Origin: an uncultured Gemmatimonadota bacterium
GTDB lineage: Bacteria > JAAXHH01
Assembly (NCBI GenBank): GCA_951812955.1
Contig: OX638340.1
Coordinates: 1,504,001-1,568,000, forward strand
Length of the DNA stretch: 64,000 nt
Direction of reading: 5' to 3'
The notes beneath the pieces were generated by a model. It saw only the letters and a list, made by a program, of their open reading frames with translations, did not search any database and was not told the DNA's origin. Positions 55,092 to 64,000 of the stretch are shown here, in pieces. How positions within the stretch are numbered: position 1 is the first letter of the stretch; every line of letters begins with the position of its first letter. Made by a program: the position numbers and the translations under genes.

Positions 55092-55618
55092 CGGGGATCG
55101 CCTGGCCTTCGGGTAGCCCGTATGGCGTTCTTCCGTGTTCCGCATCGATCGGCACCGGGCATCCGTACCGCAACCTTGCAGAATCTGAACAACGCTGATT
55201 TCAGTTCGGAAATGCCGGGAAAAGTCCTGCACTTGAATGGCCCGGAAACACCATGTCCCAACGGTTCTCCGGCTCCCAAAACAGATACCTCATTATATGC
55301 GCGGAGGGGCTTCCAGTCAATACCTTTTTCCGGGGACCGGAGCGCCGCCGCGCCCATGGTGCGCGGGAACCTCGCCGGACGGTCAAGGATGGCTTTCCTG
55401 CAAGAGCTACTAAATCAAAATCTGTGATTTAACAAGGATTTAACCTCAGAGAAACACTTGCGAAACAATAAGGTTGTATATTAGATTTCTGTGTTTGTTT
55501 CTGCGAATACGTGCAAGAGGATGTGTAAATTACCGTGGCGATCCGGACTCCTGTAACCAGGCGGCCCGGTTACCCGGGCAACGATTCATGGAATATCCAA
55601 CAGGGAGGAGCAATACTC

Positions 55619-57034
55619 GTGACCCCTAATGAAGTCATCTCTTACGCAAAGGAAAATGGAGCGAAGATGGTCGACTTCCGGTTCATCGACGTGCCAGGAA
55701 CGTGGCAGCACTTCTCGGCGCCCATCGAAACGCTGGAAGAAGAGACTTTCGAAGAAGGCGTAGGATTCGACGGTTCGAGCGTCCGTGGATTCCAGACCAT
55801 CGACAAGAGCGACATGATCCTGATCCCCGATCCGCTGTCGGCCAAGATCGATCCCTTCATGGAAGCGAAAACGCTGATCCTGATCTGCAATGTCAAGGAC
55901 CCGGTGACGCTGGAAATGTACACGCGCGACCCGCGGTACGTCGCCCAGAAGGCCGAGGCCTACATGCAGTCCGTGGGCATCGCCGACACGGCTTTCTTCG
56001 GACCGGAAGCCGAGTTCTACATCTTCGACGACGTGCGGTTCGCCCAGAAGCCGAACGCCAGTTTCCATCGGGTGGATTCCAGCGAGGGATGGTGGAACAC
56101 CGGACGGAACGAAGGACCGAACCTCGGCAACAAGATACCTTACAAGCGTGGTTACTTCCCGGTGCCGCCGGTGGATACCCACCAGGACCTGCGCACCAAC
56201 ATGGTGCTGACGCTCCGGAGCATGGGCATCGAGTCGGAAGTCCACCACCACGAGGTGGGTACGGCGGGGCAGGCGGAGATCGATATTCGGTTCAACACTT
56301 TGCTGCGCATGTCTGACGATCTGCTCATGTACAAGTACATCGTCAAGAACGTCGCCCGGCAGGCCGGCAAGACGGTGACCTTCATGCCAAAGCCCATTTT
56401 CGAGGACAACGGGTCGGGCATGCACGTGCACCAGAGCCTGTGGAAAGACGGTCGGAACCTCTTCTTCGAGGCCGGCACGTACGCCGATCTGAGCGACATG
56501 GCCCGCCATTACATCGGCGGTCTGCTCAAGCACTGCTCCTCGGTCCTGGCCTTCGCCGCGCCGACGACGAACTCCTACCGGAGGCTCGTCCCGGGTTACG
56601 AAGCGCCCATCAACCTGATCTATTCGCAGCGCAACAGAAGCGCCTGCGTGCGGATCCCCATGTATTCGAAGAGCGAGAAGGCCAAAAGGATCGAGTTCCG
56701 TACGCCCGATCCAGGCGCGAATCCCTACCTGGCCTTCACCGCCATGATGATGGCCGGCCTGGACGGTATCGAGAACCGGATCGAGCCGCCGGAACCAATC
56801 GACCTCGATCTCTACGATCTCGAGCCTGAGCAGGCCGCGGAAGTGGCCCACACGCCGCAGGATCTGGGCGAGGCGCTGAACGCCCTGGAGGACGATCACG
56901 ACTACCTCCTCAAGGGAGACGTGTTCACGCCGGACCTGATCGATACCTATATCGAGTACAAGCGGGAGAACGAGTTGGACCAGATCCGCCTGCGCCCGCA
57001 CCCGTGGGAGTTCGGTCTCTACTACGACATCTAG
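55619..57034 (+). CDS. glnA: Glutamine synthetase type I
   Basis: GS-I signatures are [23 protein letters not shown] and [20 protein letters not shown]. An adenylylation-type Tyr is in [11 protein letters not shown]. The RBS AGGGAGGA plus GTG at 55619 gives a typical 471 aa. Track ORF 55535..57034 over-extends the N-terminus. Confidence 0.9.
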
Positions 57035-57306: not shown

Positions 57307-58878
57307 ATGACGACTATTGATTTCGATCGCGACGCACTTGCGTCGACTATGCCGGACGCGGTGTCCGACCATTTGCGGTCCTCCGGATTCGGCGACCCGG
57401 CCGACGCCTGGCGAATCCTGGAGCAAATCGACCGGCGCGTGGCCCCGCTTGCGCGCCCGGGAAATCCCTTCCCTGCGCTGGTCGAAGCGGCGGCTGCGTC
57501 CCTGGAACCCGACCGGGCCCTCATCAGCCTGCACACGCTCTTTACCCGGTGCGGTGAAGATCATGTCCCGGCCCTGCTGGACCTGTTGGCCATCCCGTCG
57601 GAATCCCGAGACGCCCTGCTCACGATCCTCTCGTGCAGCCCGTACCTCAGTAACGTGCTCATCCAGGACGCGGGGTTCCTGCTCGACACCTTTGCCGGCG
57701 ATTCGTGGCGTGCACTGCAATCCGCGGAAGAGTTGGATGCTGAACTGACGGAGATGCTGCAGGGTGTGTCATCGCCGGACGAGGCCATGAAACCCCTGCG
57801 CACGTTCAAGAAACGGACCTACCTGCGCATCGCGGTGTGCGACCTGATGAAGCAATCCGGAACTCCGGCAGTCCTGGAACGGCTCACGGACGTGGCCGAC
57901 CTTTGCCTGCAGGCCGCCCACGACGTGTGCGGCATGAAACTGGAGGCGCGGCACGGACGGCCGATGCTCGAAGGATCGAAACCGAGCGGATTCGCCGTCA
58001 TCGGCATGGGCAAGCTCGGCGGCAGGGACCTGAACTTCAGTTCGGATATCGACCTGCTTTACGTCTACGACGCCACGGACGGCCGCACCGAAAAAGACGG
58101 AACTTCCACCTACGAATTCTATCCGAAACTCGCCCGGGCCATAACGGACCTCATCGGACGGCTCACGCCGGACGGGCAAGTGTTCCGCGTCGACCTGCGC
58201 CTGCGTCCGGAGGGACGGGCCGGCGATATCGCCAACTCGATCGAGGGCTACCGCTGGCACTATGAGATCCAGGGACAGGCCTGGCAGCGGCAGGCGCTCC
58301 TGAAGGCACGGTGTTCGGCAGGAAGCAGGGAGGTGGGCGGCCGGTTCCTCGAAACGATCCAGCCCTTCGTGTTCTACCCCGCCCTCGACCAGCCGCTGAT
58401 CCTTGAAGATATCAACCACATGCGGGAACGGATCGCGAAGGCGCTGATCGAACGGGGCAGCGGCGATTACCACGTCAAGCTGGGTAAGGGGGGCATCCGG
58501 GAGATCGAGTTCATCGCCCAGGGATTCCAACTCGTCTACGGCGGATCCCAGAGTTGGCCCTGGGAACGCGGAACCCGCAGGATGCTGGCCTCGCTGGCGG
58601 AAAAGGGGTACCTGTCCGATGACGAGGCATCCGACCTGGACGACGCCTATCTCTTCCTCCGGGACCTGGAAAACCGTATCCAGATGACCTCGGGCCACCA
58701 GACCCACGAGATTCCCCAGGACCGCGGCGCCCAGACCGTCCTGGCCGGCATGATGGGCCTGTCCTGGACGACTCCTGAAGAAAGGGAGGCCGCGCCGGAC
58801 AGGATGCTGTCGGCCTACGCGAGGCACACCGCCCGCGTCCACCAGATCTACGACCGGGTCTTCCACTCGGCGATGTGA
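57307..58878 (+). CDS. GlnE-family nucleotidyltransferase (glutamine synthetase adenylyltransferase-like), single-domain half-length form
   Basis: The nucleotidyltransferase motif is GFAVIGMGKLGGRDLNFSSDIDLLYVYD. GlnE-type flanking helical regions are present. The protein is 523 aa, against about 950 for two-domain GlnE. It is adjacent to glnA. Confidence 0.75.
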   Translation: MTTIDFDRDALASTMPDAVSDHLRSSGFGDPADAWRILEQIDRRVAPLARPGNPFPALVEAAAASLEPDRALISLHTLFTRCGEDHVPALLDLLAIPSESRDALLTILSCSPYLSNVLIQDAGFLLDTFAGDSWRALQSAEELDAELTEMLQGVSSPDEAMKPLRTFKKRTYLRIAVCDLMKQSGTPAVLERLTDVADLCLQAAHDVCGMKLEARHGRPMLEGSKPSGFAVIGMGKLGGRDLNFSSDIDLLYVYDATDGRTEKDGTSTYEFYPKLARAITDLIGRLTPDGQVFRVDLRLRPEGRAGDIANSIEGYRWHYEIQGQAWQRQALLKARCSAGSREVGGRFLETIQPFVFYPALDQPLILEDINHMRERIAKALIERGSGDYHVKLGKGGIREIEFIAQGFQLVYGGSQSWPWERGTRRMLASLAEKGYLSDDEASDLDDAYLFLRDLENRIQMTSGHQTHEIPQDRGAQTVLAGMMGLSWTTPEEREAAPDRMLSAYARHTARVHQIYDRVFHSAM

Positions 58879-59007
58879 CGCTTGTTCGTTTGATTCCACC
58901 TGAATCAATCCATGCCGCTCGATAGTCAAGAAACCGACCGTCAATTCCAGCCCGCTTTACATTTACTTACCAGGTTTGTGATGCTGGTGGTGCTTATGGG
59001 TAAGCCT

Positions 59008-61233
59008 ATGAGCGATACCGATCTTTCATCTCTTGTCGTCCGTGCCCAGACCGGCGACCGCGCAGCCTACGAAGGCATCGTACACCGTTTTCAGGATATG
59101 GCGGTAGGCTACGCCTCCGCATTGCTGGGCGATTTCCACTTGGCTGAAGACGCGGCACAGGAGTCCTTTGCTGATGCCTGGACTGAACTTCCGCGTCTGC
59201 AGAAACCGGCTGCATTTCCAGGATGGTTCAAACGGATTGTCTTTATGCGCTGTAGCCGCATATCTCGCTCACGGCAACCGGTGGGACAAGTGCGAGAGAC
59301 GGCAGGGTCGCTGGTTGCTAGCGGTCCCGAGGAGGAACTAGAGGCGCGCGAAGAGAAAACCATGGTCATGGGAGCGATTGGGCGGTTGCCCGAGGAAGAG
59401 AGAATGGCGACGGTGCTGTTTTATATATCGACATATTCCCACCGGGAAGTCGGCTCGTTTCTGGGCTTGTCGCCGTCGACGGTCAACAACCGGCTGCGAT
59501 CGGCCCGCAAACGTCTGAGAAAGGAGATGCTGAAAATGGCTGAACGGGAATTGCCTGGGCAGGCGCCCTCGCGCGACGAACGCTTCAAGCAGCGGGTCGC
59601 ACAATTGCTTCAGCCCGAAGACATGAAGACCGACCGCTACCAGTATGGGATCGAAGCGGTGGACGGCTACGAGGCCTGGGCGCTATTCTGCGCCAGCGGG
59701 GCCGGCGACCTGGAACGCGTCAGTGCGATGCTGGACCGGGACCCCAGGCTGGTCAATGCCCAGTACTGGTACCAGTTCCCCATCCACATGGCAGTGCGCG
59801 AGGGACATGCGGAGGTGGTCCAGCTTCTGTTGCAGGCCGGGGCCGATCCGGGACAGTCGCGCTATACCTACAATTCATGGGATAAGTTGCTGGCCATCGC
59901 CGAGGAGCGCGGCTACAGGGGAGTACAGGCCCTGCTGGAGGCGGCGATGCGGGAGCGCTTCGGGTACGATCCCGCCTTTATCCCGTTGGCCGAGATGATC
60001 AAAGGCCGCGACCGGGCACAGGTAGAGGAGATGTTGGCAGATCATCCCGAGCTCATCCACGCTTCCGACGCATTGGGCAACGGGCCCCTGCACTGGGCGG
60101 CCGTGACGCGCCAGAACGACCTTGTGGACTTCTTCGTCGCACGGGGTGCCGGCCTGGAAGTCCGCCGCGCCGATGGTAAGACCCCGCTGCTGGTCGCGCT
60201 CATCGGAGACTACTGGTTCCGGTCACGTGACTTGCCCGCGGAAGCCCCGCAAGACCCATGGGTCGTCACCCGCCACTTACTCGCTTGCGGCGTGGATTAC
60301 GTCCTGAGCGTCGCGTGTGCGGCTGGCGATGAAGACCGGGTCGAGGCGGTGCTGGAGTCCGATCCGATCCAGGCCCGCACCCTCGATCCCGGAAGGCGCA
60401 GTCCGCTTGCTTATGCAGCTGGCAACGGCCACACCCGGATCGTCGAAAGACTGTTGGACCTGGGCGCAGACCCCAACCTGCCGGAAGAGAACGCGCCCCG
60501 TGGCGGCGCGCTATTCGGCGCGTGCTCGGGCAACCACCTGGAGACGGCCGGACTGCTGCTTGAACGAGGTGCCGATCCCAACGCCGAGGTTGACTCATCC
60601 GGCTCCTGTTTGACCATTGTCGAGTACAATCATGGCACAAAAGGACAGCGGTTACAGGCCCTGTTGCGCGAATTCGGCGCCGAGATACCACCCTTCGCCA
60701 TGGACGACGCGGCACTTGAACGGGCCGTTCGCAAAGGGGATGGCATCGTCGCCCATCCACAGTTCCTGCACGAGTTGATGGGACGGAACAATCCTGCGCT
60801 CGTCGGCGTATTCCTGGAGACTACGCCCGACGTGAGCGATCTTTTTCGACTGACGGACATCTGGGGCGGCAACTACCCGTCAGACCCCGATACGATCCGC
60901 GCCCTGGCCGACCACGGCCTCGATCTGTGCCGCGCAAACTGGATTGGGCGCACCTTTCTGCACGGTTGTGCCGAAAAGGGAGATGTCGACGCGGCCCGCG
61001 TTTTTTTGGAGTTAGGGGCAGATATTGAGGCTGTCGAGTTGGAATACGGAGGTACGCCTCTGGCTGCCGCCGCGCGCACCGGGAAGGTGGAAATGGTGCG
61101 TTTCCTGTTAGATCAAGGTGCCGATCCGGCCGCACCAGTCAAGTCGCCCTGGGCGCAGCCGATATATTGGGCGGAGAAGGAAGGACACGAGGATGTGGTA
61201 GCGCTGCTCAAGGATCGCATGAACCCTGGTTAG
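59008..61233 (+). CDS. ECF (group IV sigma-70) sigma factor fused to a C-terminal ~550-aa ankyrin-repeat domain
   Basis: Sigma70 region 2 is RAQTGDRAAYEGIVHRFQDMAVGYASALLGDFHLAEDAAQESFADAWTEL. Sigma70 region 4 is LPEEERMATVLFYISTYSHREVGSFLGLSPSTVNNRLRSARKRLRKEML. At least 10 ankyrin units follow (e.g. GNGPLHWAAVTRQNDLVDFFVARGAGLEV; RRSPLAYAAGNGHTRIVERLLDLGADPNL; GGTPLAAAARTGKVEMVRFLLDQGADPAA). All lie in one uninterrupted frame. The alternative starts at 58981, 58996 and the track start at 58912 are in frame. Confidence 0.8.
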   Translation: MSDTDLSSLVVRAQTGDRAAYEGIVHRFQDMAVGYASALLGDFHLAEDAAQESFADAWTELPRLQKPAAFPGWFKRIVFMRCSRISRSRQPVGQVRETAGSLVASGPEEELEAREEKTMVMGAIGRLPEEERMATVLFYISTYSHREVGSFLGLSPSTVNNRLRSARKRLRKEMLKMAERELPGQAPSRDERFKQRVAQLLQPEDMKTDRYQYGIEAVDGYEAWALFCASGAGDLERVSAMLDRDPRLVNAQYWYQFPIHMAVREGHAEVVQLLLQAGADPGQSRYTYNSWDKLLAIAEERGYRGVQALLEAAMRERFGYDPAFIPLAEMIKGRDRAQVEEMLADHPELIHASDALGNGPLHWAAVTRQNDLVDFFVARGAGLEVRRADGKTPLLVALIGDYWFRSRDLPAEAPQDPWVVTRHLLACGVDYVLSVACAAGDEDRVEAVLESDPIQARTLDPGRRSPLAYAAGNGHTRIVERLLDLGADPNLPEENAPRGGALFGACSGNHLETAGLLLERGADPNAEVDSSGSCLTIVEYNHGTKGQRLQALLREFGAEIPPFAMDDAALERAVRKGDGIVAHPQFLHELMGRNNPALVGVFLETTPDVSDLFRLTDIWGGNYPSDPDTIRALADHGLDLCRANWIGRTFLHGCAEKGDVDAARVFLELGADIEAVELEYGGTPLAAAARTGKVEMVRFLLDQGADPAAPVKSPWAQPIYWAEKEGHEDVVALLKDRMNPG

Positions 61234-61267
61234 GACATTGTTAGAAAGTAACATAAAAAACAAAAAC

Positions 61268-61308
61268 GCCCGGCCCTGGATTAAACCGCTCCAGGACCGG
61301 GCTTTTTT
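61268..61308. terminator. Bidirectional rho-independent terminator between the ECF-ankyrin gene and the convergent RND gene
   Basis: An A-run (aaaaaacaaaaa) is followed by the stem cccggccctgga-ttaaaccgc-tccaggaccggg and then cttttttc. Confidence 0.7.
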
Positions 61309-61425
61309 CTGTATTGAACAGCGCATCTTTCGTCTCGCGCTGACGTTCAGGACAAGTCTGAGCACACGCGCACTCACGCCCACACTCTCACGCGCTCACA
61401 TCCACGCCCCCACTCACGCTTACAC

Positions 61426-64000
61426 CTACGCCCAGGCTCGCTTGACGCTCGACGTGACCCAGTTGCTCAGGTCTTCGAATATCGTATAGACCGTCGGCAG
61501 CAGGATGAGCGTCAGTATACCCGAGGTGGTCAGGCCGCCAACCAGGGCCAGGCTGACCGGACCCCACTGGTTGGCGCCGCGGTCTTCCACTGGACCGAAG
61601 AACTCGGGGAAGAGAAGCGGAGCCACCATGGGCAACAGGCCGAAGATGGTGGTCAGGGACGTCATCAGGATGGGCCGCAACCGATGCCGGCCGCCCAGGA
61701 GGAGGGCCTCGGTGCGCGTCATCCCCTCTCTGCGCAAATGGTTAACGTGATCGATGAGGACGATAGCGTTGTTTACCGCAAGTCCCGACAGAACGATGAT
61801 CCCCAGGTATGAGTTCGTGTTCAGCGTCGTGCCGGACAGGTAGAAAACGATGAAAGCGCCAACCAGTCCGCACAGTACCGACAACAGAATCGTGAAGGGC
61901 TGGATGAAGGACTCCGAAATTGCCGCCATGATCAGGTAGATGAGCACCACAGAGAGCAGGATGGCGAAGAGGAACTCGCCCTGCGATTCACGCATCATGT
62001 TGAAATTGCGCCCCATGCTCCACGTGTACCCTGGAGGCAGTTCGATACCCTCCATCATCTCGGTCACCTGGGTGTTGATGCGCCGCGTGCCCGGTCCCGT
62101 CGTGTTGCCGCCCACTTCCACCTGAGATTCCCGGTCATGCCGCTCGATGACGTCGGGTCCCTTCTGCCGCGAAAAGCTGGCCAAGTTCCCCATGGGAATC
62201 ATCCCGCCTTCAGCCCGTTCGAAAGTCATGTTCTGCAGTTTCTGCAAGCTGGCACGGTCCTCTTCCTCGAGGTGCAACAGAATGTCCACCTCGCGGTCGT
62301 CGGCCTTGAATTTGCCCCTCGCCCGGCTGCTCAGCGCAGCCTGCACGGTACGGGCCGCCTGTCTCGGGGAAATGCCGTAGGTCTGTGCCATGGCCCGGTC
62401 GACCTGCACCTGGATCTCCTCGTCGCCTCGCTCCAGGCTGGTATCCACGTCCTTCAGTCCTGGGATGACCTCCATCCGGGTACGGAGATCATCGGCGATA
62501 TTGGAAAGCACCGACATGTTGTCGCCGCGCAGTTCCACGTCCACGCCCGACTGCCCGCCGCCATATCGGCGCATCCGGCCGGGTCTCCACCGCACGCCGG
62601 CAATCTCGGGCAGCGAGCTGGTGATCCTGGTCTGAAGCTCGGTGGCAGACTCCTGCCGATCCTCGGGCGGAGTCAGCACGATGCGGAGATTTGCCCGGCG
62701 AAGGCTGCCGTAGGACGAAATGGACTCGATGTGGAATTCGTCCTTGCGGTCCAGCAGGAGTGTTTCGACGTCCGTAAAGACTTCCCTGACGTCCTCAATG
62801 CTGTAGCTGCCCGGCAGATCCGCGGCTATCGCTATATCCCGCGTAGGCGCCCTGGGCTGGAACTCCGTCTCGATGTTCTGGTACAGCCAGTAGCTACCGT
62901 AAAGGATCGTACCGAAGGCAATCACGGTTACGAACCGGTGGCGCAGGTTCCAGGCAAGGACAGACGTGTAATATCCGGAAATCCGCGCGAAGAACGCCGA
63001 GGGCTTGCCCAGTGGCCGGTTGAACAGCCTCGAGGAAACCAGCGGAATGAGCGTCAGCGCGATGAAGACCGCCGCCACCATGACAATGCAGAATGTGACG
63101 ACGAAGTCCTTCATGAAGAGCATGAACCGGCTGCCGCCACCCAGGAATACGAGGGGCATGAAGACGCAAAGGGTCGTCGCCGTGGCCGCGATGATGGCCA
63201 TGGTTACCTCGCGGGTGCCCACCACGGCTGCTATCCGCGCCGGCAGGTTGGATTCCTGCCGGTGGCGGTAGATGCTTTCAAGCACCACCACGGCAGCGTC
63301 CACGAGCATGCCCACCGCCAGCATCAGGCCCATGAGCGAGATCAGGTTGATGGATACCGTGGACCCCGCCCCCTGTCGGAGCAGATACATGAAGGTGAAG
63401 GTACAGATGATCGATATCGGTATGGCCAGGCTGATAATCAGCGTGCTACGTAAGTTGCGCAGGAAGAGAAACAACACGATGACGGCCAGCATGCCGCCCA
63501 GAAGTCCCGTGTTCCTCAGGTCAGAAAGCCGGTCCGTTATGCTCTGGGACTGGTCGAAGAATACCCGGGTTTCCAGGCCCGCGAACCGGGGCTGCGTCAT
63601 GAGTTCATCCAACACGGACTGGGTGCGTTGGGCCACGTCCACGATGTTGGCCGTGGACGTCTTGTATACCCGGATCGTGACTGCATCCACCCCGTTCAGA
63701 CGCTGGAAACTGTCGTCTTCCGGGTAGTCGAACCTCACCTCCGCCACGTCGCGCAGCGACAGGGACGTACCGGGTATGGGCAGGTTCGCCACCTCGTCGG
63801 CCGCCCGGTATTCGTTTACGGATCGGACCGAATACTTCCGTCCGCCCTCGGTGACGGTCCCGGCCGTCAGGGTGACGTTGTTCTGCACCAGGGTCTGGCT
63901 GAGATTGAACAGATCGAGGTTGTGGGACTGCAGCTTCTCGTTGTCCACGTGCACGAGCAACTGCTTCTCGACCATCCCGCTGATTTCCACGTTCGCCACG
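61426..64000 (-). CDS. RND (HAE1/AcrB-family) efflux transporter permease subunit, C-terminal ~857 aa; the N-terminus lies beyond the window end
   Basis: The 12-TM plus large periplasmic loop pattern is present. Conserved AcrB/MexB-like segments include LGLIVLSGLAVNNAIVLID and FGLLPM. The ORF is open to the window edge. Confidence 0.9.
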   Translation of the reverse strand, partial: VANVEISGMVEKQLLVHVDNEKLQSHNLDLFNLSQTLVQNNVTLTAGTVTEGGRKYSVRSVNEYRAADEVANLPIPGTSLSLRDVAEVRFDYPEDDSFQRLNGVDAVTIRVYKTSTANIVDVAQRTQSVLDELMTQPRFAGLETRVFFDQSQSITDRLSDLRNTGLLGGMLAVIVLFLFLRNLRSTLIISLAIPISIICTFTFMYLLRQGAGSTVSINLISLMGLMLAVGMLVDAAVVVLESIYRHRQESNLPARIAAVVGTREVTMAIIAATATTLCVFMPLVFLGGGSRFMLFMKDFVVTFCIVMVAAVFIALTLIPLVSSRLFNRPLGKPSAFFARISGYYTSVLAWNLRHRFVTVIAFGTILYGSYWLYQNIETEFQPRAPTRDIAIAADLPGSYSIEDVREVFTDVETLLLDRKDEFHIESISSYGSLRRANLRIVLTPPEDRQESATELQTRITSSLPEIAGVRWRPGRMRRYGGGQSGVDVELRGDNMSVLSNIADDLRTRMEVIPGLKDVDTSLERGDEEIQVQVDRAMAQTYGISPRQAARTVQAALSSRARGKFKADDREVDILLHLEEEDRASLQKLQNMTFERAEGGMIPMGNLASFSRQKGPDVIERHDRESQVEVGGNTTGPGTRRINTQVTEMMEGIELPPGYTWSMGRNFNMMRESQGEFLFAILLSVVLIYLIMAAISESFIQPFTILLSVLCGLVGAFIVFYLSGTTLNTNSYLGIIVLSGLAVNNAIVLIDHVNHLRREGMTRTEALLLGGRHRLRPILMTSLTTIFGLLPMVAPLLFPEFFGPVEDRGANQWGPVSLALVGGLTTSGILTLILLPTVYTIFEDLSNWVTSSVKRAWA

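Follow-up and report, generated by a model that had tools for sequence, protein, structure and literature searches.

A single gene at positions 59008-61233 of the stretch analysed here (64,000 nucleotides, positions 1,504,001 to 1,568,000 of contig OX638340.1 from an uncultured Gemmatimonadota bacterium; hereafter the window) encodes a sigma factor, of the extracytoplasmic function (ECF) type, that carries a very large ankyrin module in the same polypeptide, a genuine fusion that adds to the known ECF sigma factors with regulatory or sensor extensions. Within a large and little-studied modular clade, whose promoter and linker are portable, this protein is the leading member. Our favored reading, to which we assign a probability of roughly one half, is that it is a cytoplasmic "one-component" ECF sigma factor that transcribes its own gene and is kept closed by its linker and ankyrin module until a partner binds. 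Bacterial signal transduction has its third major mode in ECF sigma factors, of which the ones bearing fused extensions are understood least. The locus provides a testable case, having a very large protein-binding tail, a candidate promoter, a coupling-like linker and natural controls from which the sigma part is missing.

The open reading frame (ORF) is uninterrupted from 58912 to 61233 on the plus strand and would encode 773 amino acids if the first ATG were used. Alignment of the upstream DNA with that of two close orthologues identified ATG 59008 as the conserved start, the N-terminus reads MS[DE][ST] in all orthologues, and at the orthologous locus L083 the upstream ATG meets a stop codon directly. 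Because ATG 59008 is the start conserved across orthologues, the product is 741 amino acids long; the first-pass annotation had given an uninterrupted ORF of 741-773 residues, of which the continuity and the shorter length hold and the longer length does not. The gene, its parts and its candidate promoter are as follows.

58968..58995, plus strand: putative ECF-type promoter, with TACCAG as the -35-like element (58968-58973), a 15-nt spacer and GGTGCTT as the -10-like element (58989-58995).
59008..61233, plus strand: coding sequence of the 741-aa sigma-ankyrin protein, with the start placed by orthologue alignment and the stop codon at 61231-61233.
59023..59271, plus strand: sigma region 2 domain (sigma2), residues ~6-88, from the Sigma70_r2 match and the AlphaFold helices at 6-88.
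59272..59325, plus strand: variable and disordered sigma2-sigma4 linker, residues ~89-106 (18 residues), with low predicted local distance difference test (pLDDT) scores.
59326..59535, plus strand: sigma region 4 domain (sigma4) with its helix-turn-helix, residues ~107-176, from the Sigma70_r4_2 and Sigma70_r4 matches.
59536..59619, plus strand: conserved post-sigma4 linker, residues 177-204, a candidate built-in anti-sigma-like element.
59620..61230, plus strand: ankyrin module, residues 205-741 (~540 aa), with about 15 helix-pair units in four blocks.

The sigma-70 regions 2 and 4 that had been read from the N-terminus by eye were recovered by profile searches, with matches above cut-off to Pfam Sigma70_r2 (residues 25-83, 31.8 bits against a cut-off of 24), Pfam Sigma70_r4_2 (residues 120-170, 39.6 bits against 25.7) and the NCBIfam model for ECF-type sigma-70 factors, TIGR02937 (61.9 bits against 42.9), in addition to a match to Sigma70_r4 above its gathering score (residues 123-172). 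No Pfam match to sigma region 3 or 1.1 was found in the 741-aa protein. With regions 2 and 4 only, a short variable linker between them and a score above the cut-off of the curated model, the protein can be classed by sequence as an ECF (group 4) sigma factor, and the nearest solved proteins by sequence are likewise ECF sigma factors (SigW, SigE, AlgU, sigmaE and CnrH). The canonical core-contact and DNA-contact positions are invariant in the aligned sigma part. Sigma2 holds the clade signature RFQDMAVGYA...GDFHLAEDAAQESF and has D48, Q51, F54, W73, R84 and R87 invariant across the clade; the invariant positions of sigma4 are F151, L152, T158, R162, L163 and R167. Residues 90-106, between the two domains, have AlphaFold pLDDT values below 50. 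After sigma4, the linker carries the motif A186-P-S-R-D-x-x-F193 (APSRD..F, nt 59563-59586), which is near-invariant among fused proteins.

The extension beyond sigma4 amounts to 565 amino acids in the same ORF. Five Pfam models (Ank, Ank_2, Ank_3, Ank_4 and Ank_5) match approximately residues 250-737 at 92-134 bits, far over their cut-offs, so that the long ankyrin run described by the first-pass annotation does follow the sigma part in frame with no stop. The module consists of tandem helix-turn-helix repeats of about 33 residues with an ankyrin fold, and a fold search with the whole model found no embedded enzyme or other domain, giving generic ankyrin matches only. Its best-conserved segments are NAQYWYQFPIHMAVREGH (residues 249-266) and RADG.TP...GDYW (residues 387-403). 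The maximum Kyte-Doolittle value over a 19-residue span is 1.4, with no transmembrane segment and no signal peptide; as no segment reaches transmembrane hydrophobicity, the protein is cytoplasmic.

A search of 5.8 billion proteins returned at least 45 full-length fused homologues, which come from independent assemblies, are 700-770 amino acids long and align end to end with the query at 41-99% identity. Phylogenetic profiling of ECF-ankyrin fusions in related genomes placed fused genes in several phyla, in species-representative metagenome-assembled genomes (MAGs) that bear the labels Latescibacterota, Gemmatimonadota, Poribacteria, KSB1 and Acidobacteriota; among the closest relatives the Latescibacterota label prevails, and the labels differ among near-identical proteins. 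Median identity of the fused homologues to the query is 65% in sigma2, 47% in sigma4, 50% in the post-sigma4 linker and 53% in the ankyrin module, and only 17% in the sigma2-sigma4 linker. Moreover, pairwise identities of the sigma and ankyrin parts are correlated (r=0.86), a value that none of 2000 Mantel label permutations reached. These domain identities and this correlation indicate that both halves are under selection and inherited together. The end-to-end homologues and the co-divergence exclude an assembly chimera, and since all 45 share the architecture, the claim that the junction is an in-frame fusion and not a chimeric join is upheld. The sigma-ankyrin fusion is thus genuine, ancient and under purifying selection in both halves, and is probably functional; the co-divergence argues for a single ancient fusion event. 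The names given to the homologues in public records do not go beyond "sigma-70 family RNA polymerase sigma factor" or "ankyrin repeat domain-containing protein".

The ankyrin module also occurs on its own. About half of the best matches are ankyrin-only proteins of ~560 amino acids with up to 84% identity, one of which (P0011) is encoded at an unrelated locus with no sigma gene nearby. The close ankyrin-only copies start with the last 16-30 residues of sigma4 followed by the linker (e.g., "...RSARKRLQDEMLKMAKRE" and "QAPSPDECFAQRV"), and upstream of these copies no sigma remnant was found beyond that of residues ~161-200. A neighbor-joining tree of the ankyrin module intermixes fused with sigma-less forms and has only fused ones on its deepest branches; it is midpoint-rooted, and the direction of loss rests mainly on the sigma4 and linker relics. 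The simplest reading would be that the sigma-less forms arose by repeated loss of the sigma part. Of 39 fused proteins, 37 retain an intact PS[RK][DN]..F motif, versus 8 of the 34 sigma-less copies that still have that segment, indicating that the linker is maintained only while the sigma domains are present. Along the whole ankyrin module, sigma-less copies are conserved as much as fused ones or more, from which it follows that the module has a function of its own. No ankyrin surface conserved only in the fused forms, which would be a candidate sigma contact, could be localized, the sigma-less copies being equally or more conserved everywhere.

In a side observation on these copies (the cluster of P0008 and loci L001, L003 and L004), one cluster at 90% identity was found to contain fused members of 742-752 amino acids together with sigma-less members of 561-570 amino acids. 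Two complete Latescibacterota chromosomes of ~6.6 Mb appear to hold the sigma-less version only, at a locus unrelated to that of the window. The mixed cluster and the chromosomes suggest, at the level of sequence, that loss of the sigma part has been recent and recurrent.

Aligning the 200 nt upstream of 76 clade genes revealed a consensus of tGAACCTTTc, about 11 nt and ctGG(G/C)(A/T)CTTTAt, or in short form AACCTT-N13/14-GG(G/C)(A/T)CTTTA, of which TGAACCTTTC-N11-CTGGGACTTTAT is a canonical example. A strict version (AACCTT-N13/14-G[GC][GCT][ATC]CT[TC]) is present in 27 of the 76 upstream regions versus 0.055 expected from shuffles, and begins 34-162 nt ahead of the start codon, in most cases at 50-70 nt. 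When the clade position weight matrix (PWM) was scanned over 2.8 Mb of sequence from the loci analyzed, both strands counted, all 34 hits, including several outside the training set, lay directly upstream of clade sigma genes, with no strong hit elsewhere in the 10-kb flanks on either side of 80 related loci. In the 64-kb window the clade PWM gave no hit versus 0-3 in shuffles. The window gene, whose promoter can also be written TTACCAG-N15-GGTGCTTAT, is preceded instead by the subgroup variant at 58968-58995, which ends 12 nt before ATG 59008 and would make the mRNA nearly leaderless. The pattern TACCAG-N14-16-GGTGC[CT]?TT occurs five times in 2.83 Mb of sequence from these loci (both strands), each time before a sigma-ankyrin gene or operon (in the window and at the orthologous loci L082, L083, L084 and L085), in two unrelated synteny contexts. 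A sigma gene preceded by its own promoter type is the usual signature of ECF autoregulation, and we infer that this sigma factor reads the promoter in front of its own gene. From the conserved promoter it also follows that a single promoter type is read by paralogues that differ in their tails.

Two further features were noted in these upstream regions. At L085:6050-9226, the locus of an orthologue with 60% identity, a 275-aa ankyrin gene lies between the promoter variant and the sigma-ankyrin gene, with which it would be co-transcribed; its similarity to the large module is that of generic repeats only (30%). In addition, 12 of the 76 upstream regions, versus 0.16 in shuffles, have a short perfect palindrome, (A)GAAGGCCTTC(T), after the -10-like element (e.g., L005:1074-1125, L079:9932-9985 and L070:9940-9990). 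In several phyla it is found 18-64 nt ahead of the start codon; the window gene lacks it. It may serve as an operator where transcription starts or be a feature of the 5' end of the RNA.

The predicted structure suggests how the two halves may be related. AlphaFold modeled the full-length protein with a predicted template modeling (pTM) score of 0.82; since the ankyrin module, which makes up 72% of the residues, would alone give a pTM of at most ~0.72, AlphaFold must have placed much of the sigma region against it with confidence. For residues 1-330 (sigma2, sigma4, linker and first ankyrin block) the pTM was 0.73. In this construct the largest rigid unit comprises ~38% of the chain and any two units ~68%, a fraction exceeded by the pTM, and AlphaFold therefore places all three units in one assembly. 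The sigma2 and sigma4 domains of the model superpose best on ECF structures bound by an anti-sigma factor, over 133-145 residues (145 for RpoE-NepR and 138 for CnrH-CnrY, with the SigW-RsiW complex also matched), and the remaining sigma structure matches span one domain only.

From these results we propose the following mechanism. The N-terminal 176 residues would form a sigma2-sigma4 unit that recognizes the clade-specific promoter, and the copy of that promoter before its own gene would lead to positive autoregulation. At rest, sigma2 and sigma4 would be held closed by the linker, perhaps together with the first ankyrin block, much as separate anti-sigma factors hold other ECF sigma factors; binding of a cytoplasmic partner, either a protein or a ligand, to the ankyrin module would release the closed arrangement and allow sigma to join RNA polymerase. 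The closed state of the model would thus be inhibitory and the ankyrin module the input. This cis-inhibition model is supported by the compact models and by the sigma-dependent conservation of the linker. The earlier suggestion that the ankyrin domain acts as a cis anti-sigma or sensor module is accordingly plausible, with indirect support from the compact models and from sigma2 and sigma4 domains that resemble the anti-sigma-bound state. By sequence, the extension would also place the protein among "one-component" ECF sigma factors, as it exceeds 50 amino acids in the same ORF, is conserved with the core and has no anti-sigma neighbor.

The sigma core of this protein is shared with many others. 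With residues 1-176 as the query, we retrieved ECF sigma factors of 270-300 amino acids that have 45-53% identity, the motif RPS[KR]D..F and different tails. Residues 1-204, searched with HMMER against 1.84 billion cluster representatives, matched at least 753 proteins at E<=1e-30, a lower bound that counts clusters at the 50% identity level. The sigma part is N-terminal in all of the best 150 of these 753, and among the 140 of them newly retrieved by this search lengths range from 230 to 840 amino acids (median 439). A C-terminal extension is present in essentially all of the ~220 clade members examined, and essentially all of 69 ORFs from species-representative genomes carry it in frame, with sizes from 90 to ~1190 amino acids. 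Pfam domains in these 69 include Ank, TPR, LRR, GNAT, Pol-beta nucleotidyltransferase and bifunctional nuclease (BFN), as well as PheRS-core, Rho-like, SecA-like and UvrA-like domains. A Pfam census of 103 proteins from the best 150 counted Ank in 29 (~28%), FliG_C in 11 and FliM in five, followed by BFN and GNAT (three each), PheRS-core, T2SSF, Rho and LRR (two each) and single cases, citrate synthase among them. Of the many tails found on this one conserved sigma core, ankyrin is therefore the most frequent. The APSRD..F motif is present in clade members whichever tail follows; the clade covers many phyla, Planctomycetota included, and individual genomes encode several paralogues with different tails and a common promoter type.

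Individual members of the clade (proteins P0279-P0381 and loci L005-L081) have the sigma core in frame with very different proteins, for example at L054:2077-6264, L073:349-3240, L051:2740-4935 and L068:2469-4472. A fusion to a UvrA-like ABC ATPase and a Pol-beta nucleotidyltransferase reaches 1396 amino acids and one to a SecA-like ATPase 964, and many of the tails are subunits of oligomeric cellular machines. Finally, in two Poribacteria MAGs (L019:9995-15592 and L020:68-5676) the sigma-ankyrin gene is followed by two sigma-like ORFs of ~470-500 amino acids on the same strand, forming a tandem array; these have 23-28% identity to the sigma part of the query and ~300-aa extensions of their own.

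Several observations weigh against a sigma factor held closed by its own tail. Judged from its conservation in sigma-less proteins, the ankyrin module functions autonomously and need not exist to regulate sigma, and this conservation fits equally a tail that is merely co-expressed and has its own job. The occurrence of the sigma core on SecA-, UvrA-, Rho- and PheRS-like tails would be explained by capture of downstream genes as well as by designed sensors. Neither promoter motif has another copy in the 64-kb window, where no target gene is named, and the activity of the window variant is uncertain, given a spacer that exceeds the clade consensus by 2 nt and a distance of 12 nt to the ATG. The proposed position of the linker in the cleft is drawn from pTM and superposition, and AlphaFold may favor a closed arrangement of sigma2 and sigma4, most solved ECF structures being anti-sigma complexes.

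A different history is that a portable unit of promoter, sigma2-sigma4 and linker duplicated and landed in front of an autonomous ankyrin gene, in which case the fusion would only couple ankyrin expression to sigma feedback, or be tolerated, and the tail would not control sigma. For planctomycetal ECF sigma factors, PMC7671368 describes how such a minimal sigma2-sigma4 unit was duplicated and took up the sequence downstream of it as unrelated extensions, and in the present clade the same core and promoter are combined with Ank, FliG_C, FliM, TPR, LRR, GNAT and BFN tails as well as with SecA-, UvrA-, Rho-, PheRS- and citrate-synthase-like ones. Furthermore, the promoter always travels with the sigma gene, and the ankyrin module survives and stays conserved once sigma is lost. 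Nevertheless, the fusion to this ~540-aa module is ancient and has co-diverged across phyla (r=0.86) with no sign of repeated re-capture, AlphaFold joins sigma2 and sigma4 with the first ankyrin block into a single assembly with confidence, and the linker is common to all tail types and decays on sigma loss, which suggests a shared coupling mechanism and not accidental junctions. We consider capture without regulation possible, if on the unlikely side. The same clade-wide observations could be extended further, to a so far unrecognized cross-phylum class of modular "tethered" ECF sigma factors in which a portable cassette of promoter, sigma2-sigma4 and anti-sigma-like APSRD..F linker is joined to interchangeable interaction modules, either repeat domains or copies of machine subunits (such as FliG/FliM, GspF, SecA, Rho, UvrA and PheRS), each reporting the state of a cellular complex, or a molecule targeting it, onto a shared promoter type. 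We put this forward as a tentative proposal and rate it as rather doubtful; if true, it would supply compact, anti-sigma-free parts for synthetic circuits.

It seems improbable that the tails are baits or decoys whose engagement by an invader or by damage frees sigma for a defense or stress regulon. The tails are either recognition repeats (Ank, TPR and LRR) or copies of essential machines (SecA, UvrA, Rho, PheRS, FliG/FliM and GspF), which on this view phage or toxin proteins would target, genomes hold several paralogues with different tails and one promoter type, and NCBIfam contains a defense-associated sigma-70 protein with ankyrin repeats (MzaA), which matched the ankyrin part of this protein only. 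Yet no defense genes lie beside the gene in the five contexts (the window and L082-L085), matches in the defense-system libraries of PADLOC are at the level of ankyrin only, the MzaA model reaches 65.8 where its cut-off is 800, and the high conservation of the ankyrin module (53% median identity across phyla) is unlike that of typical fast-evolving immune receptors. A still less probable view is that this is a "eukaryote-like" ankyrin protein directed at a eukaryotic host factor. Some relatives do belong to Poribacteria, sponge symbionts rich in ankyrin proteins, and NCBIfam reports weak similarity to Legionella ankyrin effectors, but these matches are far under the cut-off (58.9 versus 600), the protein has no signal peptide or transmembrane segment, it is fused to an RNA polymerase subunit that necessarily acts in the bacterial cytoplasm, and the MAGs that contain its relatives are mostly of free-living phyla from soil, sediment or water. 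Nothing was found in favor of the tethering to a eukaryote-like partner raised by the first-pass annotation, the protein being cytoplasmic and its relatives spread over many free-living lineages. Finally, the gene might be an artefact or pseudogene, that is, two genes joined by assembly error or frameshift, or a decaying remnant, in line with the existence of sigma-less ankyrin genes of up to 84% identity and of the 90%-identity cluster that mixes both forms. This has a negligible probability, as the same junction recurs in 45 independent full-length homologues, gene order is shared and the ORF intact at three close orthologous loci, the linker at the junction is itself conserved, and the sigma-less copies are clean 5' truncations at other loci.

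The surroundings of the gene in the window include the following elements.

55535-57034: glnA, upstream of the sigma-ankyrin gene.
57307-58878, plus strand: half-size GlnE-like gene, upstream of the sigma-ankyrin gene.
61250..61309, no strand assigned: bidirectional intrinsic-terminator-like element, consisting of an A-run, a hairpin GCCCGGCCCTGG/CCAGGACCGGGC (61268-61302) and a T-run.

The genes glnA and glnE-like thus lie beside the sigma-ankyrin gene, as had been described; an HtrA-like protease gene is located further upstream and a convergent RND pump gene downstream. The GlnE-like protein has 523 amino acids, which we take to be about half the length of canonical two-domain GlnE, with one GlnE nucleotidyltransferase domain and one GlnD_UR_UTase domain, and its gene adjoins glnA at L082 and L083 as well, two close orthologous loci. 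The synteny of the window (htrA-glnA-glnE-like and RND) is kept by orthologues at 82-83% identity. At 60% identity, orthologues have an ArsR-methyltransferase/SAH hydrolase pair on one side and, on the other, a CheB-CheR fusion with a histidine kinase; with the glnA/glnE synteny gone at this distance, a functional link to nitrogen assimilation was rejected. Among the adjacent genes in the window and at the four orthologous loci L082-L085, no anti-sigma gene was found, in agreement with the first-pass annotation, though one at an unlinked position is conceivable, and the conserved promoter of the gene would fit a self-regulated ECF sigma factor. The terminator-like element, previously called a bidirectional terminator, sits between the convergent sigma-ankyrin and RND transporter genes and does show a GC hairpin flanked by an A-run and a T-run, with its minus-strand version recovered in a pattern scan. 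Beyond it, at 61330-61440 and before the RND stop region, lies low-complexity DNA rich in CAC/ACGC (cacgcgcactcacgcccacactctcacgcgctcacatccacgcccccactcacgc...). Rfam gave no RNA family match in the 64-kb window, this stretch included.

ECF sigma factors with fused regulatory extensions are known in several groups, namely ECF41 (SnoaL), ECF42 (TPR), ECF238 (Cys-rich) and ECF57 (WD40) (PMC7826278, PMC8999054). We found no description of an ankyrin extension in the literature searched, and the word "ankyrin" is absent from the ECF reclassification paper, the reviews and the evolution paper, which supports the earlier statement that such an extension is not, as far as known, a described ECF group. 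The present protein resembles ECF41/SigJ (SnoaL_2), ECF42 and ECF238/CorE in joining a sigma2-sigma4 core and an extension in one polypeptide, in having no cognate anti-sigma gene and an extension that co-evolves with the core, and in its compact, here predicted, structure with the tail packed on the sigma domains. As in ECF42, the tail is a protein-interaction repeat domain. Unlike the SnoaL or TPR tails, however, the ~540-aa ankyrin module is built of several blocks and is 3-4 times larger; unlike ECF41 and ECF42, which have one tail type each, the sigma core is combined with dozens of unrelated tails; and a clade-wide post-sigma4 motif, APSRD..F, distinguishes it from ECF41, ECF42 and ECF238. 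Pfam gave no match in the 741-aa protein to a SnoaL domain (as in ECF41, ECF56, ECF294-295 and ECF205) or to TPR (the ~200-aa C-terminal extension of ECF42), the latter being found in other clade members. ECF57 (former ECF01-Gob) has a WD40-like extension and two conserved cysteines that link sigma2 and sigma4 (PMC8999054); here there is no WD40 match and no transmembrane segment, and a single conserved cysteine (C82, at the end of sigma2) with none in sigma4. Identities as ECF41, ECF42, ECF57 or MzaA were rejected, as the defining features of each were missing.

Comparison with separate anti-sigma systems is of interest for the proposed mechanism. The relative arrangement of sigma2 and sigma4 in the AlphaFold model is like that in the CnrH-CnrY, RpoE-NepR and SigW-RsiW complexes, and, as with the minimal (class II/III-like) anti-sigma factors CnrY and NepR, a short helical segment, here the one after sigma4, could act as a small anti-sigma. 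Unlike CnrY and NepR, this candidate inhibitory segment (residues 177-204), for which a place in the cleft is proposed, is covalently attached and precedes a large sensor-like module; no sequence similarity to them could be detected. MzaA (NCBIfam NF041931, a sigma-70 protein of the MZA anti-phage system) also combines ankyrin repeats with a sigma-70-type domain, as far as can be told from the family name and the match. Only the ankyrin repeats were matched (query 658-736 to model 13-89, 65.8 against the cut-off of 800), and the matched ankyrin region is N-terminal in MzaA, unlike in this protein. No Mza partner genes were found near the sigma-ankyrin gene, PADLOC gave no Mza match, and a literature search for "MzaA" retrieved unrelated papers only.

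The closest precedent for the pattern of the whole clade, likened here by its published description, is the planctomycetal lineage of Pinto and da Fonseca (2020; PMC7671368), in which a minimal sigma2-sigma4 unit was duplicated and gained unrelated extensions by sequestering adjacent sequence. As described there for the group expanded in Gemmata, sigma2 and sigma4 are conserved, the extensions are diverse, often large and resemble other proteins, and there are several paralogues per genome with little conservation of context. The present clade agrees with that description in its conserved core and unrelated extensions of variable size (~90 to ~1190 aa). It differs from the lineage so described in occurring in many phyla, and the sigma-ankyrin fusion itself is old and vertically inherited and not a recent within-genome event; the clade also has a conserved promoter and a linker motif, neither of which turned up in term searches of the main text of PMC7671368. 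With at least 753 clusters, the clade carries the planctomycetal observation beyond Planctomycetes, and it could be used to examine whether tails "captured" in this way really control sigma activity, which the discussion of PMC7671368 leaves open.

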